A stretch of DNA of 64,000 nt from an uncultured Planctomycetota bacterium (GCA_963737655.1 CAVTTN010000002.1:1152001-1216000), one strand, 5' to 3'; shown: positions 47,442 to 63,726, counted from the first letter of the stretch. Notes: generated by a model from the letters alone, not told the origin. A program made the numbers and translations.

Positions 47442-48215
47442 TCGCGAGGGCGGCCCGGCGGTCTCCTGGGAGGGCGTGGAGAAGGACTATCCCGACGGGC
47501 ACAAGGCGCTGGGCGGCGTGACGCTGGCGGTCGCCCGGGGGGAGTCGCTGGCGATCCTCGGCACCAGCGGATCGGGCAAGACGACGCTCCTGAAGACGGT
47601 CAACCGGCTGATCGAGCCGACCGGCGGCTCGGTGGTGGTCTTCGGCAAGCCGACCTCGGCCTGGGACCGGATCGCGTTGCGGCGGTCGATCGGCTACGTG
47701 ATCCAGGAGGCGGGCTTGATGCCTCATCTGGACTGCCTGGCCAACGCGGGGCTGGTCCCCCGGCTCAAGGGCACGCCCCGGGCCGATCGCGAGGCGAAGG
47801 CCGAGGAGGTGCTGGCGCTCGTGGGCCTGGACCCGTCGCGGTTCGCCCGGCTGCGGCCGCATCAGCTCAGCGGGGGGCAGAGGCAGAGGGTCGGCGTGGC
47901 CCGCGCCCTGGCCGCCGACCCGGACCTGATCCTGATGGACGAGCCGTTCGGCGCGCTCGACCCGATCACCCGCCGCGACCTCCAGGACGAGTTCCGGTCG
48001 CTGCAACGACGGCTGAAGAAGACGGTGATCCTCGTGACCCACGACATCCGCGAGGCGTGCCGGATCGCCGACCGGCTGGCCCTGATGGACCGGGGCAAGC
48101 TCGTCCAGGTCGGCTCGGCCGAGGACTTCCGGGACCGCCCGGCCGATCCGTTCGTCCGCTCGTTCTTCGCCGACGCCGAGGCCGTGGCGATCGGTCACGA
48201 CGGGGGCCCGGCTGA
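47431..48215 (+). CDS. Osmoprotectant ABC transporter ATP-binding subunit (OpuA/ProV-like); stop needs one more G at ~48205
   Basis: GTSGSGKTT, GYVIQ, LSGGQRQRVG, LMDEPFGALDP, VTHD. Restoring one G gives TGATG coupling to the next gene. Confidence 0.9.
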
Positions 48216-49872
48216 TGACGGCATTCCTGAACCTGCTCCGCGAGACGCTCCGACTGGGCTGGGACCACCGGGCCGAGCTCGCGGAGCTGGCGGCGGCCCA
48301 CCTGGACCTGGTCGTCGAGTCGGTGGGGATCGCCTCGGCGATCGCCGTGCCCCTGGGCATCCTCGCGTCGCGGTCGAGGCCGGTCGAGCGGGTCGTGGTG
48401 GGCGCGGCCAACGTGCTGCAGACGGTGCCGAGCCTGGCCCTGCTCGGGTTCCTGCTCGTCCTGTTCGGCGGGGCGATCGGCAAGGCGCCGTCGCTCGCGG
48501 CCCTGGTGATCTATTCGCTGTTGCCGATCCTGAAGAACACGGTCCTGGGCCTCCGGGGGGTCGATCGCGGGACGGTCGAGGCGGCCGAGGGCATGGGGAT
48601 GACCGGGTGGCAGAGGCTCCGGCTGGTGGAGCTGCCGTTGGCCGTCCCGGTGATCCTCGGGGGCGTCCGGGTGGCGGCGGTGGCGGCCGTCGGCATGGCC
48701 ACGATCGCCGCGTTCATCGGCGCGAGGGGGCTGGGCAACTACATCCAGAGGGGCCTCTCGACGCTCGACGCCCGCTGGACCCTGCTCGGCGCGATCCCCG
48801 CGGCGATGCTCGCGCTGGGGTGCGACGCGGCTCTGGGCGAGCTCGAACGGGCGATCGACCCGAAGGCGGCGAAGGGCTCGCGGCTCCGGGGGATCGTCGC
48901 CGGGCTGGCCATCGCGGTGCTCCTGGGCCTGGCCCTCTGGGGCGCCACGGACGGCTGGAGGCCGGGCCGGGCCGCCGAACCGCCCGAGGCCGCCCCGGAC
49001 GGCCAGGCCGGCGAGGGCCGCCGCGAGATCCGGACCGTCGTCGTCGGCTCCAAGGACGGCGGCGAGATGATCCTCCTCGGCCACATGCTCGCGGACCTCA
49101 TCGAGGCAAAGACCGATCTGAACGTCCGGCGGACCATGAACCTCGGCGGGACGATGATCGCCTTCCAGGCGATGAAGGCCGGCGGCCCGGCGCGACCGGC
49201 GACCGGGCCGGCGGGCTGGATCTCTACGTCGAGTACACCGGCACCGCCCTCACGGCGATCCTGAAGAAGCCGCCGGCCAACGACCCGGCCGCCGTCCGCG
49301 ACGAGGTCCGGCTCGGGCTGGCCGCCCAGGGGATCGCGTGCCTCGACCCTCTCGGGTTCGAGAATACGTTCGCCATGCTGATGCGTCGGGACCAGGCCGA
49401 GCGGCTGAAGATCCGGCGGATCTCGGACCTCCGCCCATTCGGCCAGACGATCCGCCCGGGGGCCGGCCCCGAGTTCATGAACCGGCCCGACGGCTTCGCC
49501 GGGCTCGTCCGCGCCTACGGCCTGAAGTTCGCGCAGAGGCCCCGCGAGATGGACCGCAACCTCCTCTATCAGGCCCTGTCTCGGGGCACGATCGACCTCG
49601 CCGCCGGGGACTCCACCGACGGCCGGATCGCCGCGCTGGACCTCGTCGCCCTGGAAGACGACCGCCGCTATTTCCCCCCGTACGAGGCCGTCCCCCTGAT
49701 CCGCGCCTCGACCCTCCAGGCCCATCCCGAGATCGAGAAGGCCCTCCGCCCTCTGCTCGGCAAGATCGACGCCGCGACGATGAGGAGGCTGAACTACGAG
49801 ATCGACGGCAAGAAGCGCGACCCCGCCGAGGTCGCCCGCGAGTACCTCCGGGCCTCGGGCTTGCTGCCTTGA
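48215..49872 (+). CDS. Fused osmoprotectant ABC permease plus substrate-binding domain (apparent frameshift at ~49210)
   Basis: QTVPSLAL, EAAEGMGMT, GARGLG; VGSK..E, DLYVEYTGT, GFENTF, RPDG, LEDDRRYFPPY. Confidence 0.9.
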
Positions 49873-49877
49873 GGCCC

Positions 49878-50037
49878 GGAGGGTGCATGAAATGCACCAA
49901 ACACGCGGCGGCCATCGGCCGCCCACCCAGACTCCGCGAGCACCGGCAAGGACAAGGAACGCGGTAGGCCGGCGTGGCCCGCCGCTTCCTGGCGGGTTTC
50001 GCCCGCCCCAGGTCACGGTGCATTTCATGCACCCTAC
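49878..50037. repeat. REPIN-like element (GGTGCA family)
   Basis: GGAGGGTGCATGAAATGCACC ... GGTGCATTTCATGCACCCTAC. Confidence 0.85.
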
Positions 50038-50122
50038 GGGACGTTGGTCCTCATCACCGTTGTCCCCGGAGGGTCCAGGGGATAGCCTGGAGGCCCTTCG
50101 CCCACCACCCGGAGCGCCTCCC

Positions 50123-51426
50123 GTGAATCGAACCTTCCTCGCGTGCCTCGTCGCCCTGGTCGCCTCGTCGTCGGTCTCGGCCCAGGAGGCCGCGAAGCCT
50201 CCGACGAAGGCGATCGTGATCAAGGCCGGCAAGCTGATCGACCCCCGCGCCGGCCGCGTCTTGACCGATCGCGCGATCCTCGTCCGGGGCGAGCGGATCG
50301 AGGCCGTCGGGCCGATCGACGAGGTCCTCAAGGCCGCGCCGAAGGACTGCGAGACCATCGACCTCTCGGGCTCGACCGTCCTGCCCGGCCTGGCCGACTG
50401 TCATACTCACGTGTTGTTGCAGGGTGACATCACCCAGGCCGACTACGATGAGCAATTGCTCAAGGAATCGATCCCTTACCGGACGATCCGCGCCACGATG
50501 GCCGCCCGGACGGCCGTCATGAACGGCTTCACGGCGATCCGCGACCTGGAGACCGAGGGGGCGATGTACGCCGACGTGGACGTCAAGAAGGCCATCCACA
50601 ACGGCGTGATCCCCGGCCCCCGGATGTTCGTCGCGACCCGGGCGTTCTCGGCCACCGGCATGTATCCGCTGACGGGCTATTCCTGGGAGCTGAAGATGCC
50701 CGAGGGCGTGCAGATCGTCGACGGCCCGGACGCGATCCGCAAGGCCGTCCGCGAGCAGGTCAAGCACGGGGCCGACTGGATCAAATTCTACTGCGATCGC
50801 AAGTATTATCTGAAGGACGGCGTCCTCCGCAGCAAGGTGAACTTCACCGAGGACGAGATGAAGGCGATGGTGGACGAGGCCCACCGGCTCGACCGCAAGG
50901 TGGCCGCCCACGCGATGGGCAGGGACGGCATCGCCGCCGCTTTGAAGGCCGGCGCCGACACCATCGAGCACGGCGACGGCCTCGACGAGGAACTCATGGA
51001 CGAGATGATCCGAAAGGGCGCCTTCTGGTGCCCGACGATCTACGTCGGCGTGTACGTGGCCGAGGGCCGCGCCGCCTCCGGGCGCCGATCTGGAAGGACA
51101 TGGTCGAGATCGAGCGCAAGGCGTTCGGCCTGGCCGTCAAGAAGGGCGTCAAGATCGCCTACGGGACGGACGTCGGCGGCTACTCCTGGAGCGAGAACCA
51201 GGCCAAGGAGTTCTCCTACATGGTCCGCTACGGGATGACCCCGATGCAGGCGATCCGCTCCGCCACGGTCGTCGCCGCCGAGCTCCTCGAATCCGAAAAG
51301 GACCTCGGCGCCATCGAGCCCGGCAAGTTCGCCGACATCATCGCCGTCAAGGGCGACCCCCTGGCCGACATCTCCGAGCTGGAGCACGTCTCGTTCGTCA
51401 TGAAAGGTGGGAAAGTGCTCAAGTAG
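50123..51426 (+). CDS. Secreted metal-dependent amidohydrolase (Xaa-Pro dipeptidase-like); apparent frameshift at ~51080
   Basis: PGLADCHTH, GFTAIRD, GADWIK, VAAHA, IEHG; then YGTDVG, GKFADIIAV.GDPL, FVMKGG. Confidence 0.9.
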
Positions 51427-52653: not shown

Positions 52654-53525
52654 ATGGCGAACGCTCCGGACGGCCTGGAGGCGATCTTCGAGCGGGGTCA
52701 GACCGAGGCGTCCGGCCAGGTCCGCGATCCGGGGCCGGCGCGACGGGCGTTCCTCTCCGCCTCGACGAACATCGACACGGCCCCCTTGAAGGACACGCTC
52801 CGGAGCCGCGGCTTCGCTCCGTTCGAGCTCGACGAGGTCGCCGCCGAGGGCCGGACGATCCCCGAGCTGCTCGAAGATTGCGTGAAGGGCGCCGACCTCA
52901 TGGTCGCCGTGGTCGGCGGCGGTTCGCGAGAGAACGTCCTGTTCGAGCTGGGCTACGCCTCGGCCCTGAAGACGCCGATCCTCGCCCTGGTCCCGCCCGG
53001 CGAGGCGATGCCGATCTCGCTGGCCTCCATCCCGTATCTCCGAACGGGCCCGAACAACCGAGAAGCGATCGAGTTCGGGCTGGATACCCTCCTGGCCGTC
53101 CCGCCGTCGTCCCGGCCATCGCGGGAGAGTCTCCCGAGACGACCCGCCCCATCGGTCCTCTGGCCGATGAACTGCTCGGGAGGCTTCGCACCTCCGGCGA
53201 TTCGGATCAGAATGACCTGACCGAGATCGTTCGTCGGGCCTTGAATGCGAGCGGCGTCGCATCCCTGAACCTCGCTCCCCGCCTGTTCGAAGACGGCTCG
53301 ACCGACTTCGCCGTCTGGTCGGACGATTTCGAGGGTTTTGCAGGGATTGGGGAGTCGGACTCCGAAACTCGGGGAGCTCGCTCTCCCAACTCCCCCGGAT
53401 CGCTCAGCCGCCCGTGCTCCCGGTGGCGATTTTGGTCTCGAAGAGGCTGGATGAACGTGCGTCCCGATGCCGATACCACGGACCTGGCATCGTCTGTTCG
53501 CAGACTGGAAATGCCTGTATACTAG
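52654..53525 (+). CDS. TIR/nucleoside-deoxyribosyltransferase-like domain protein, frameshifted at ~53125, with possibly truncated nuclease-like C-terminus
   Basis: AFLSAS..ADLMVAVV..ENVLFELGYASALKTPIL; second frame ..EIVRRALNASGV..TDFAVWSDDFE, after which the sequence looks non-coding. Confidence 0.55.
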
Positions 53526-53556
53526 GTATTCCGGCGGTCAGTCCAGGCGGGCGAAT

Positions 53557-54677
53557 CTGGAATCCGAAGAGTTCCTGAGCCCCCGGCTGGTCGGGGGTCG
53601 GTTCGAAGGGAATGCCATCCCCCTCGACTTCTTGCGCGACTTATCGGCGCTCAACGACATCCTCCGGGAGGAGGCAAGGGCGGCCTGGTTCAAGGCGAAC
53701 CGCGACCGCAAACGCCTCCCGAACGGCTTCTCCGAAGACTTCACCCTGTCGCTCTCCGGCGTCGAACCAGGGAGTGCCGTCCCGAAGATCACCTTGTTCT
53801 TCGCGATGTTGGGGGCGGCGGCCGCCCCGGCGGTCGAGTACCTCCGCCAATCGCGAGAGAACCTGATCGGCGGCGTCCGCGCCGCTGCGGAGGATCGGCA
53901 ACCGACCGATTATCTCTCGCCGGGAACGTTGGCGAAATTCCAAGGCTTCGGCGAACGGCTCCGCGACGGCGAAGCCATCGAGTTCAGCGACCACGGCACG
54001 ACGGTCCGGTACACGAAGGAAGTCCGTCGCAAGCTGCTGCTGGCGGCACCGGGGGTCGAGGAAGTTTCGGAGGAGGTCGAGCTTCGCGGGCTGGTGTGGC
54101 GAACGGATCAGAGGGACAAGGTCTTTCTCATCAAATTGGCCGATGGGACGGAAGCCCCTGGCCCTATGGCCGGAGATCATTACGATAACATCCTCGAAGC
54201 GACGAAGGATTATCGACGCGGTGCGAAGATCTTCTTGCAGGGCATCGGGACGCGGAACCGGCAAGGAAAACTCGTAAGGATCGACTCCATCGAAAGTTCC
54301 AGCGTGCTAGACCCTCTCGACATCCATGCGAGGCTTGAGGAACTGCGTGTCCTCAAGCAAGGATGGTTTGACGGCGAAGGCGAGTCCTTCGATCCGGCGG
54401 GGATGGACTGGCTCGAATCCTCCGTGCACGATCACTACGCGCCGGATCGCCACTCCCGTACATCTTCCCGTCGCCGGACGGCCAGGTCATCTTCCAGTGG
54501 AAGATTGCCAATACGTCCGCGACGCTGGAGATCGACCTTCGAGACAGGACAGGCTACTGGCATGCCCTCGATCTGGCGAGCAAGAGCGATTCGGATGCGG
54601 ACATCAATCTCGATGAGGCCACCGGCTGGAACAGCCTGACGGAGCGGTTGGCAATGATTCGTGGGGGCAAGGCGTGA
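53557..54677 (+). CDS. Multidomain hypothetical protein (apparent frameshift at ~54449; start uncertain)
   Basis: EFLSPRLVGGRFEGNAIPLDFL..; beta-rich VELRGLV..FLI..IFLQGIG..VRIDSIE; RLEELRVLKQGWFDGEG..PLPYIFPSPDGQVIFQW. The corrected frame ends at a TGA overlapping the next GTG. Confidence 0.7.
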
Positions 54678-55051
54678 TCGATAAAACTCTGCTTTTGCGG
54701 CAGGTGCATCCGACCTTCATCCAAAACGGCGAGATTGGCGTCGTGGCCTTCCGCCCAAACGACAGCGATCACGGGCGCCTGTCGGTTTACGATGGCGATC
54801 AGATCACGCCCGAAAACTCGTTCAAACACTGGACGGACGAACTAAAAAAGAAGTCTGTTGGCGTCCTGGGCGTGACCGTCGGAGAATGCGCCTCGGTGGA
54901 ATTGCAGGCCGTCTCGAGCCCTTTGGAGAACTTCGCTTCCCACGCCCATATCGACTTATCCCCCTATGAAAAGAAGGATCAGCGGACGAAGACAAAGGCG
55001 ATCCTGGCCTTCGCCCTCGCCCGCGATTGGCTTTTCCCGTCGGAAACTTGA
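54674..55051 (+). CDS. Small hypothetical protein, possible ADP-ribosyltransferase/RES-like fold
   Basis: LLLRQVHP..AFRP..D.GRLSVYD..GVLGVTV..HAHID; GTGA coupling; low GC. Confidence 0.7.
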   Translation: MIDKTLLLRQVHPTFIQNGEIGVVAFRPNDSDHGRLSVYDGDQITPENSFKHWTDELKKKSVGVLGVTVGECASVELQAVSSPLENFASHAHIDLSPYEKKDQRTKTKAILAFALARDWLFPSET

Positions 55052-55314
55052 CGAGATGGAATCCCCGCCGCGGATTCAGCCGCCACTGCGCCCGCTCTGC
55101 TTCCCGAGTCGCAGCAGCATTTCCTCGGGGACATGCCGAGCCCGGGTGATTCAGGCGCCGCGGTCTCTCGAATCGACTTCGCCCCCGTGGTAAACTTGAG
55201 GACGACCGGCAGGAGCGGAAAAGCCGGGACCATGCGAATGTTCCGCGCCAGGAACGTGACGAAAACAGGCCAGGGCGTTGGCGCAAACATTTGAAATTGA
55301 TGGAATTGACACAT

Positions 55315-61732: not shown

Positions 61733-62098
61733 GGTGCATGAAATGCACCAAACATGAGCACGCGGCGGCCACCGGCCGCCCACCCCGTCCTCCGGGAGTC
61801 TCCCTCCCGAGGTCCCATGGCAATCGAAGCGGAAGGCGGCCGGTGGCCGCCGCGTGCTCATGTTTGGTGCATTTCATGCACCCTACGTCACATCAACACC
61901 GGAGACCGACGACCTCGCCGAGTGACTGAGGACCCTGTAGGGTGCATGAAATGCACCAAACATGAACACGCGGCGGCCACCGGCCGCCCACCCCGTCCTC
62001 CGGGAGTCTCCCTCCCGAGGTCCCGTCGCAATCGAAGCGGAAGGCGGCCGAGGGCCGCCGCGTGCTCATGTTTGGTGCATTTCATGCACCCTACGTCA
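61690..62098. repeat. 208-bp-period tandem duplication containing two 158-bp REPIN-like elements (61729-61886, 61937-62094)
   Basis: Near-identical copies bounded by GTAGGGTGCATGAAATGCACC and GGTGCATTTCATGCACCCTAC; the preceding ~40 bp are also duplicated with mismatches. Confidence 0.92.
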
Positions 62099-62606
62099 AC
62101 TTCACCGCCGCTTGGGGAAAACGTGTTCCCTGTGAACACTCGTCCACAGGATGGCCGCCGACCGGCACCGCCCGGGTCATCGGGCGGCCCGTTTCGCATT
62201 CCATGGACAATCACTTGACGAAACCGCCTGGGCGTTAACTTGACTACACTTTTTCGCCGAAAACGCCGGAAACCGCGGAAAAACCGCCATTTGCTGCGCA
62301 ACGACTCGTGCGCACACAATCCACCACAACGTTTCATTCGAAAATCCGTCGGACCGAACCACCGGACAACACGGGACTTGAGGCGAGGCGGCGGATCGGG
62401 CCATCGGCCCGAAAAACGTCGTCGGGGCGGTCACTTCGTGCGCGCCGGCCGGGTGCCCGTGTGACACTGGGTTGTCACGGTCCCGCGACCCGTCCCGGGC
62501 GATCTCGAAGAAAAGGTGATCGCCGACGGGGCCCGGCCTCGATGGTTCCGGTCGTGGGCCTCGCTCGTGGCCGAGGCCGTCGCCGATCGTCCCGGCCGCC
62601 GGTGTT

Positions 62607-63726
62607 TCATGCGTTCACAATCATCCGAGAATTCCACCGATCCCGCCGCGCCTCCAGCCTCGCCTCGCAGGAATCCGGCGACGCCCCCCGGGCCAGGACC
62701 GTCAGGACCGGCTCGCCCGCCTCGAAGGTCGATCCCTCCGGCGGGAGGTCCGCCCGAGGGGGCAGGGCCATCGTGCCGATCCCTCGGAATCGCGTGCGAT
62801 CCGAGGGCGGGAGGCGGCTGCGGCCCGGGGCGAACAGGATCGACTTGCCCACGATCGAGGGCCTCCGACCCGGCCCGGCCGAGGCCGGCGCCGACGGGTC
62901 GAACGCCCGGCGATGCTCGGCCAGGAACGCCCGGCCCGAGGCCAGCTCCAGCACTTCCACCGACGCCGAGTACCTCGGGTTGACCTCCACCGGGGCCGCG
63001 CGATCGCCCCTCAGGAGGAAATCGACCCCGAACAGGCCGACCAGGCCGATCCGTCCCGCCAGGACCTCGCCGATGGCCCGCAAGTCGTCCCGGGCCGGGC
63101 CGGGGACGTCGATCGGCCCGAGGCTGCCCCGATAGGCGAACGGGTTGCCGGGCTTGCCCAGGAGCTGGCGGGTCACGCCGAGAAGCTCGGCCGAGCCGGC
63201 CCGGCCTACGAACACGGCGGCGAGGCTCGGCCCGTCGATGCGTTCCTGGAAATACCAGGGGCGATCGGCCCTCGCCGAACCGAGCCAGGGCGCGATCTTC
63301 CGCCCCCCGGCCGAGCCTCACGGGCTTGATGAGCCAGGAGCCGTCGGTGGGCAGGCCGTCGGGGGAGACGCGGGCCTCGGGCGCCGGAATCCCTTCGGCT
63401 CGAAGGATTTCGGACAGGCCCACCGGGTCGCGGACCACGCGCAACGCCAGTCCCGAGACGCCCCAGAGGGGCCGGGTCGCGGCCAGGCGGTCGATCAGGT
63501 CGGGGCGGTTCTCCAGGGCCCCGGTATACATCCACGGGCCGGGCGGCAGGGCGGAGGCGAGGGCCTCGAAGCCGTCGGGATACGTCGATCCGTCGATCCG
63601 AACCGTCGGCGCCACGGCCAGGAGGTCGCGGTCGGCGAACAGGTCGATGGCCGAGGGCTTCAGCCCGGCGCGGAGGGCGGAATGGGCGGCGCTTCGGGCG
63701 CTGGCGCCGAGGATCAGGAGGTCCAT
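62607..63726 (-). CDS. ATP-grasp protein (COG2232-like, type found in H4MPT/methanofuran C1 clusters); apparent frameshift at ~63315
   Basis: LGASARSAAHSALRAG..IDLFADRDL, YTGALEN, LIKP..SAGG, QERIDG, GLFGVDF, EVNPRYSAS.E. Confidence 0.85.

Follow-up and report, generated by a model that had tools for sequence, protein, structure and literature searches.

PDC-M32 in a planctomycete genome: a candidate phage-defence gene pair with a predicted ADP-ribosyltransferase-fold toxin and its probable antitoxin

Introduction

The question raised by positions 53557-55051 of the stretch of DNA analysed here (64,000 nucleotides from an uncultured Planctomycetota bacterium, GCA_963737655.1 CAVTTN010000002.1:1152001-1216000, referred to below as the window) is what a pair of overlapping genes of unusual composition might be doing there, and how far such a pair is already known. 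An original prediction, made from the sequence alone, had suggested a translationally coupled module of two genes, encoding a large multidomain protein (A) and a small protein resembling ADP-ribosyltransferases (ARTs; B), and had proposed it as a candidate toxin–antitoxin or anti-phage system. The reading preferred here, to which a probability of roughly 55 % may be attached, is that the pair is a type II toxin–antitoxin system used in phage defence, in which B would be an NAD+-dependent, Tse2-like toxin, the C-terminal domain of A (C-domain) its silencer, and the rest of A (an N-terminal domain followed by an OB-fold domain, together N+OB) a sensor. The cassette and its upstream neighbour lie on the + strand, and positions are counted from the first letter of the window.

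The locus and the limits of the cassette

The GC content of 53557-55051 is 60.7 %, as against a genome mean of 68.7 % (standard deviation 2.8), and about 1 % of 1.5-kb segments of the genome are equally low. At third codon positions GC is 0.77/0.79 in gene A and 0.72 in gene B, compared with 0.92-0.97 in three flanking genes, and codon adaptation is 0.53/0.54 for A and 0.47 for B, compared with 0.73 ± 0.05; the lower GC and the greater use of A/T in third positions that first drew attention to the locus are thus borne out. The pair is present as a single copy in this genome (7.6 Mb in three contigs, 88 % complete), where it lies between a truncated TIR-like gene and TatD.

The accessory cassette, comprising a leader, gene A and gene B, can be placed approximately at 53330..55093 from the range matched by two related contigs, X1 and X2, which match the window from 53327-53333 up to 55075-55093; its right-hand end is soft, in that the loose letters past this match still look window-like by eye. 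At the other end lies a TIR/nucleoside-deoxyribosyltransferase-like gene (52654..53345, recognised from weak Pfam TIR-like matches below cut-off), a neighbour outside the system, whose frame is broken near 53110-53135 and which ends abruptly at the start of the cassette: its similarity to homologues ends at 53333-53345, a homologue of 332 residues (G962) aligns to it only as far as its own residue 242, and the last 90 or so residues found in a homologue are missing. Since the start of the cassette near 53330 truncates this gene, the cassette looks like a recent insertion in the window. No convincing terminal repeats were found for the cassette, and no terminator was found at the locus.

Within the leader, the hexamer TATACT (53518..53523), suggested at the outset to resemble a -10 element, is indeed present and is rare in the genome (0.015 per kb). 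It is kept upstream of the homologue at locus L001, with a CCGGCGGT block nearby, but it is changed in the X2 contig and a search for a sigma-70 promoter found no -35/-10 pair, leaving it without a -35 partner, and a role as a -10 element can be offered only tentatively.

Two minor observations belong here. Homologues of the TIR-like protein (307-332 residues; G962, G993) run on, by eye, into a segment resembling a PD-(D/E)xK nuclease. In addition, an intergenic repeat of about 80 bases on contig C2 (51518-51604 of the window) occurs in several copies in the genome and in genome G002, and text similar to it recurs near 49880 and 61750-62200.

Family identity

Both genes fall in a family that is already catalogued. 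In the PADLOC HMM library (PADLOC-DB 2.0.0), gene A matches PDC-M32A (PDLC04574) with E = 5e-88 over model positions 4-299 and E = 2e-17 over positions 302-373, of 376, the two halves being consecutive, while gene B matches PDC-M32B (PDLC04579) with E = 6e-41 over positions 1-121 of 123. The two genes match these models over their length and are adjacent, on the same strand and in the same order as in PDC-M32, so that by profile and layout the pair is a PDC-M32 member (membership being judged here by matches to the library profiles and by gene order). The view that the system is uncharacterised and nameless therefore needs qualifying: it has already been listed, but as one of 145 candidates (PDCs) that Payne et al. 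(bioRxiv 10.1101/2024.01.29.577857), in the accessible part of their preprint, drew from the genes lying inside BREX, DISARM and type I restriction systems, and which they describe as untested.

PDC-M32 is not named in the main text of that preprint, the supplementary tables of which may carry annotation bearing on novelty. The sole paper found that does name it reports, in its accessible part, a PADLOC match in a Sinorhizobium prophage (PMC12429752); the A-B system is not covered in the accessible text of PMC13069673. No account of the A-B pair, or of the module swap described below, was found in the literature searched, which took in few subscription papers. Searches of Pfam, NCBIfam and PDB sequences gave no family for A or B, and the Atlas returned only unnamed clusters, with DUF6575, DUF7946/7947 and DUF6098 as weak leads. 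The position is thus that the family is already listed, and that neither the folds assigned here, nor the antitoxin domain, nor the exchange with PIN toxins was met with in the literature searched. Searches found 278 relatives of B and 59 homologues of A, the full-length examples of the latter being mostly 366-386 residues long.

Domain architecture of A

Gene A (53557..54677) would encode about 373 residues when intact; in the window it starts with CTG and its frame is broken once in the assembly, points that are taken up in the last section. Its structure was approached through that of an intact homologue, P0123, the model of which has a pLDDT of 90.7. This model has the three parts that had been anticipated from the sequence, namely an alpha/beta N-domain, an OB-like middle and a C-domain.

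The N-domain (residues 1-165; 53557..54051), delimited by the model and by conservation, has as its conserved residues G13-R15-F16, R51, R53, G72-S73, G132 and R157; its fold is unplaced, OB matches having filled both structural lists when it was searched within the whole-protein model. The predicted OB-fold domain (residues 169-252; 54061..54312) was recognised by structural comparison: of the 50 highest matches to A, almost all are OB folds aligned at 169-257 (SilF, MCM, RPA, SSB and PriB), SilF giving Z 8.9 and rmsd 2.9 over 72 aligned residues. The C-domain (residues ~253-372; 54313..54677), which is the predicted antitoxin, consists of a W-x-D-G motif followed by a beta sheet. Its residues 285-369 match the immunity protein TriTu (7zhm_D) with Z 7.1 and rmsd 2.8, with 82/87 aligned and 5 % identity, in a single row at rank 23; no PDB sequence match to the C-domain was found below E 1.8.

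Matches to A in the viral structure library BFVD include three phage proteins, Q6NE06, A0A8S5QA00 and A0A345BPV0 (E 6e-9, 2e-6 and 7e-5), and among the BFVD matches are a Leptospira phage LE1 protein and a protein of 114 residues (TM 0.73), perhaps an antitoxin-like domain standing on its own. A search of A against GenBank phages gave no match, and a single-protein metagenome scan found nothing.

Gene B as a predicted ART-fold toxin

Gene B (54674..55051) is intact and encodes 125 residues. Six of these (R9, Q10, S37, G41, S61 and H90) are the same in every one of 109 aligned proteins; in 98 genome and viral rows the R, S and H are kept in 98, 97 and 98, respectively. R9, S37 and H90, the last being the first H of HAHID, are the early Arg, the residue of the LSVY strand and the late His on which the original prediction had fixed as an ART-like arrangement. 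In the model of B (pLDDT 95.8), R9 lies within strand 6-11 and S37 within strand 35-40, and the split beta-sheet of an ART fold is found. When the structural comparison that had been proposed for the small protein was made with an exhaustive aligner, the closest match was Tse2 (5ako_D), with Z 8.2 (near the level that the aligner calls common), rmsd 2.9, 105 aligned residues and 17 % identity. Tpt1, AvrPphF ORF2, DarT, Tne2, TreX, Scabin, TreTu and other ART-type chains come next at the top of the list, all of which we take to be members of the ART superfamily. Foldseek searches of the PDB returned nothing at E <= 0.001 for the B model or for the A homologue model. The residues R9, S37 and H90 come in the same order as R14, S80 and H122 of Tse2, although the aligner yields ranges rather than residue pairs; a pocket formed by R14, T79, S80 and H122 has been predicted for Tse2 (bioRxiv 10.64898/2026.06.15.732508, accessible part), and Tse2 is described as NAD-dependent in the accessible part of a review (PMC6099711). 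On the strength of the model, B is best read as an R-S-H ART-fold protein.

It is not a classical one. The Glu of R-S-E enzymes was not found on the late core strand, where the invariant His90 stands; a Glu close to H90 is found in 89 of 98 rows, short of invariance, and the window copy has Ser instead. Among 109 B members there was no match at E <= 0.1 to RES or any other ART family in Pfam, nor to a Tse2-family profile, and no PDB sequence matched at E <= 10. Of the suggested likeness to ART/RES-type NAD-using toxins, then, the predicted ART fold has stood; the predicted toxin is R-S-H (Tse2-like) rather than of RES or classical R-S-E type.

What B would do with NAD+ is a separate matter. 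One alternative, which seems doubtful, is that it destroys NAD+ (as a hydrolase or phosphorylase) rather than transferring ADP-ribose to a macromolecule. Such an activity would sit well with a His in the place where R-S-E enzymes have Glu and with a nearby Glu that varies, and with the presence of Tne2, RES toxins and MbcT, all of NADase type, in the structural list. Phosphorolysis of NAD+ is the chemistry described for RES toxins (PMC9503650, accessible part). However, TreTu also lacks the canonical Glu and yet modifies EF-Tu (accessible part of PMC9825190), and the highest structural matches of B are Tse2, Tpt1, AvrPphF ORF2 and DarT. In the preferred reading B would transfer ADP-ribose.

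Pairing of B with the C-domain

The C-domain lies directly upstream of B in every genome locus examined (80 of 80, these being the best 80 of 164 and close relatives picked by one motif), whatever precedes the C-domain itself; it does so too in 17 of 17 viral loci, of which 14 are full-length, and four plasmid records carry the pair, the C-domain being present in the three inspected. The conservation of the pair among homologues that had been proposed as a check thus holds, and with an overlap of four bases between A and B in 67 of the 79 loci measured, the conserved two-gene operon expected of type II toxin–antitoxin systems is what is observed; conservation across the 80 loci does not extend to a third gene. 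In the window the stop codon of A (TGA, 54675-54677) overlaps the GTG of B in the sequence GTGA at 54674-54677, just as had been read originally.

Within the same best 80 of 164 loci, A is full-length in one frame in 55, full-length but split in 2 and partial in 23, the partial cases comprising 4 cut by the end of a contig, 2 with OB+C and 17 in which the C-domain stands alone or behind other N-termini (among them repeat-rich, AF2212-like, as in L021, and unassigned ones). (L017, from genome G437, which is flagged as unpublished, accounts for one locus in each of the totals 80, 55, 23 and 79 and provides a type III example; no conclusion rests on it.) N+OB is found on 114 of the 120 longer C-domain proteins listed, the rest having partial N+OB (three) or being fusions to TIR, DUF4419 and an unknown domain (one each). 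More distantly, C-domains in another phylum precede small ORFs in which R, S and H can be made out by eye in the same order.

Structure prediction points the same way. The C-domain of P0123 modelled with B of the window scores 0.87, as against 0.01 for the best of three controls, where the mark used for such scores separates solved complexes (116 of 157 attain it) from mismatched pairs (2 of 215); the runs agree in at least 98 % of contacts, and the partners have pLDDT of at least 92. The outcome of the proposed complex prediction is thus favourable, with the reservations that it concerns the C-domain of the homologue (P0123 and A of the window are 80 % identical over residues 1-296 and 66 % over 297-373) and that the score may reflect likeness to solved ART-immunity complexes. 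In the predicted interface, the face of the beta-sheet of A and its W-x-D-G motif lie on residues 12-31, 58-60 and the C-terminal helix 100-112 of B, while R9, S37 and H90 are outside the listed predicted contacts. We consider it very probable that B is an NAD-using toxin neutralised by the C-domain of A.

At three loci (L057:4422-5159, L080:4440-5111 and L222:911-1285) an extra gene, which could be a chaperone-like third component, lies upstream of variants of A with long N-termini; the extra protein of L057 has no Pfam, NCBIfam or PADLOC match.

The N+OB module beside predicted PIN toxins

The remaining part of A, N+OB, is also met with apart from the C-domain. In 56 of 94 loci examined, near-complete N+OB is fused to a short DHYLYG tail ahead of an overlapping PIN gene (PF01850), which would encode a toxin unrelated to B and probably an RNase, none of these having the C-domain, and a further 21 of the 94 have partial N+OB or the tail only, plus PIN. 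The N+OB segments of the two groups are homologous (profile probability 99.9 %, E 6e-32, 242 columns, 24 % identity). As 50 of the 56 PIN loci came from a metagenome scan for which the DHYLYG tail was one search pattern, these counts are biased toward the tail; in whole-genome HMM scans that were not tied to it, the PIN type was found in 3 of 7 and 3 of 10 matching genomes. The first of these figures refers to the phylum of the window, where N+OB occurs in 7 of 401 genomes, four with the C-domain and B and three with the DHYLYG tail overlapping PIN; the second refers to the phylum of G438, where 10 of 401 genomes with an N+OB search match comprise the centre genome, three of PIN type, one cut by a contig end and five with a distant C-domain only. 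Conversely, at least 17 of the best 80 of 164 loci have B without N+OB, which is not required for the pair. The C-domain, in short, follows the toxin and N+OB does not; and because the toxin partner and N+OB swap independently, the C-domain is to be seen as the partner of the toxin and N+OB as a toxin-independent module.

That N+OB is an infection sensor, and not merely a regulator of its own promoter, is a real possibility, though we put it somewhat below even odds. A more ambitious version, which should be regarded as speculative, is that N+OB is a portable infection sensor (for single-stranded nucleic acid or for a phage protein) grafted onto the antitoxins of both R-S-H ARTs and PIN RNases; a Tse2-like toxin paired with a TriTu-fold antitoxin would then be met in phage defence for the first time, in PDC-M32, which would also offer access to R-S-H ART chemistry by way of the cytoplasm. 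With one module of 250 residues carried by two predicted antitoxins that would guard two classes of toxin, its role can be tested by deletion and swap.

The pairs of N+OB and DHYLYG tail with an overlapping PIN gene (L131-L133, L134-L213, L215-L217) are widespread and unnamed, and are themselves a candidate defence system; PADLOC gave only a partial PDC-M32A match for this pair, and nothing for the PIN gene tested.

Genomic context

Type I restriction genes are present within 6 kb in 24 of the 80 loci (the best 80 of 164, as raw counts from crude gene calls, many loci being short). The pair lies between such genes in 14 of the 80, often as hsdM-A-B-hsdS, and next to a hsd or mod gene in 23. 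Other neighbours include McrB/McrC on either side as well as Eco57I-type, GmrSD, TIR, reverse-transcriptase and toxin-antitoxin genes (the family names of neighbours were checked on representatives, namely 106 of 196 selected cluster representatives, plus variants). A defence-rich neighbourhood, which had been put forward as something to look for, is present, though many loci sit among housekeeping genes. The distribution of B is patchy: it is present in 2 of 41 related genomes and was not found in 39 of 40 relatives, and the closest named locus with B among the best 80 of 164 is in an Isosphaeraceae genome.

It is against this background that an ordinary selfish or stress-type toxin-antitoxin module has to be considered, in which N+OB would repress its own promoter and restriction operons would be tolerated landing sites. 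Type II antitoxins normally carry an N-terminal DNA-binding domain, and the conserved arginines and OB fold would suit nucleic-acid binding; the fusion of the C-domain to an AF2212-like domain in L021 can be read in the same sense, as can the occurrence of the pair on 4 plasmid records and 17 viral contigs and the 56 of 80 loci that have no type I gene nearby. On the other hand, 250 residues is large for a repressor, no HTH, RHH or AbrB family was matched in 47 A members at E <= 0.1, and no operator-like palindrome stood out in the leader. The 14 of 80 loci inside hsd operons also tell against such a module, given that, of the 9 systems that Payne et al. tested, 7 bore out the defence role predicted from their embedding (bioRxiv 10.1101/2024.01.29.577857, accessible part). 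An explanation of this kind seems to us rather unlikely. We think it fairly likely that the cassette serves in defence against phage or other mobile elements.

Three further observations concern the neighbourhoods. A full pair (L071) lies beside a mod-type methylase and an IS110 transposase on a contig labelled as a Nitrosopumilaceae archaeon; in L031, L048 and L065, B and short versions of A lie inside type I restriction operons, alongside a gene for a ThsB-like TIR protein and a small gene whose family matches PDC-M50A; and the protein P0190 is a ThsB-like TIR fused to the C-domain.

Proposed mechanism and comparison with known systems

Under the preferred reading, A and B would be made together, and the C-domain of A would cap B and silence the predicted NAD+-dependent, Tse2-like ADP-ribosyltransferase until a signal read via N+OB freed B, which would then arrest the infected cell. 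The scheme draws on family identity, pairing, overlap, the invariant R-S-H residues, the swap and the location in restriction operons, all read from the loci, and on the model-predicted ART, OB and TriTu-like folds and A-B interface; from these we infer toxicity, neutralisation, phage defence and the sensor role.

The closest relatives are of course the PDC-M32 homologues, the embedding of which in type I restriction operons is how PDCs were found; for this candidate the gain is a concrete, if predicted, mechanism and a set of residues to mutate. In predicted fold (Z 8.2) and in the R-S-H order of its putative pocket, B is like the toxin of Tse2-Tsi2 from Pseudomonas aeruginosa (PDB 5ako), although the identity is 17 %, there is no Pfam link, Tse2 is a secreted type VI effector and no Tsi2 match is listed for A. 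The antitoxin side recalls instead TreTu-TriTu of a Salmonella Rhs protein (PDB 7zhm), in which TriTu covers the ART toxin TreTu with a beta-lid that also grips the toxin's C-terminal helix (PMC9825190, accessible part): the C-domain matches TriTu (in which a sheet of five strands, with two helices, caps the toxin), and it too is predicted to bind its toxin with a sheet and to contact the C-terminal helix, the comparison resting on one match (Z 7.1, 82/87, 5 % identity). TriTu differs in being a separate immunity protein, encoded downstream of its secreted toxin, while the C-domain is the end of a three-part protein encoded upstream. On these models, folds from type VI effector-immunity pairs (Tse2, TriTu) may be linked to a widespread cytoplasmic pair.

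With the best fold matches of both B and the C-domain coming from type VI effector-immunity pairs, it might be asked whether A and B are an orphaned effector with its immunity protein, used between bacteria by way of a secretion system as Tse2-Tsi2 and TreTu-TriTu are. This is very improbable, and a secreted effector pair was rejected, as no Hcp, VgrG, PAAR or Rhs family was found among the 106 neighbouring proteins scanned; moreover, the partner lies upstream with extra domains, and B has no delivery domain.

The toxin-antitoxin reading of PDC-M32 places it beside CmdTAC (PMC11618068) and DarTG, likewise phage-defence toxin-antitoxin systems with ART toxins. It is not CmdTAC, which was rejected because B has R-S-H in place of the H-Y-[E/D/Q] triad of CmdT and because there is no third gene like the SecB-like chaperone that accompanies CmdT and its small helical antitoxin (PMC11618068). 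DarTG was rejected since neither A nor B has a macrodomain, NADAR or DarT match in Pfam or PADLOC. Its antitoxin, DarG, is an ADP-ribose hydrolase. RES-Xre, ParST and MbcTA were rejected also, there being no RES or Xre match in Pfam in 109 B or 47 A members and RES toxins reaching only Z 3.3-4.6. The VapBC-type PIN modules (L131-L133, L215-L217 and metagenome loci) share with PDC-M32 the homologous 250 residues of N+OB and the 4-base overlap with the toxin gene, and differ in having the DHYLYG tail instead of the C-domain and a PIN toxin (PF01850); they are unnamed as far as searched. To our knowledge, how toxin-antitoxin defence systems sense phage is established in a few cases only.

One lead of a different kind is DUF6575, a protein of which, 370 residues long, is a structural match to A in the viral library (E 2e-6) and a weak lead in the Atlas (0.84), though with a low TM-score (0.26) and without any Pfam or PADLOC match; it is mentioned here as a lead only. 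Vassallo et al. 2022 (PMC9519451) validated one DUF6575 protein as a single defence hit, DUF6575 not being found in those supplements of that paper that were searched.

Condition of the window copy

There remains the question of whether the copy in the window is itself in working order. Codon 1 of gene A is CTG in the window and ATG in L001 and in both related contigs. An in-frame ATG at 53467 was considered as the start and rejected, since homologues begin at the codon at 53557 and X1 and X2 are without that ATG. Compared with an intact homologue, residues 1-296 of A are in one frame and 297-373 in another, and X1 and X2 (short-read contigs of relatives, about 93-96 % alike to the window, and not from the source sample) are each one base longer, placing the frame break, at which the window is one base short, at 54439..54442. 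The indel predicted at about 54449 is thus confirmed as a one-base frame break, though on the evidence of the two related short-read contigs its site is slightly further to the left.

The CTG start and the missing base near 54440 are probably errors of the assembly. The alternative, that the family is as described but that the window copy is a decaying remnant with a genuine CTG start and frame break, we regard as unlikely. It has in its favour that there are two lesions in one gene, that X2 shows its own one-base loss at window position 54260 (depth 5.7, one contig), that 2 of 57 full-length A homologues are split and that the neighbouring TIR-like gene is truncated. However, the assembly is indel-prone, since there are frame breaks in ordinary genes: domains are split across frames in three nearby ordinary genes, and a frame switch was seen in 3 of 18 conserved orthologues relative to genome G001 and in 1 of 7 window orthologues relative to G003. 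X1, for its part, has an ATG and an open frame where covered. B is intact, from which it may be argued that the antitoxin is intact too, as loss of the antitoxin sheet beside a live toxin should be lethal. Given that the copy is possibly damaged, work is nevertheless best begun from an intact homologue.

The frame breaks in ordinary genes of the window are at 48215-49872, 49883-51426, 62431-63726 and ~18966 (ABC transporter, amidohydrolase, ATP-grasp and TIM-barrel genes). The loss in X2 at 54260 would cut A just ahead of the C-domain. Finally, an in-frame GTG at window position 54305 lies where stand-alone C-domains begin and, speculatively, might allow the antitoxin part to be made separately.
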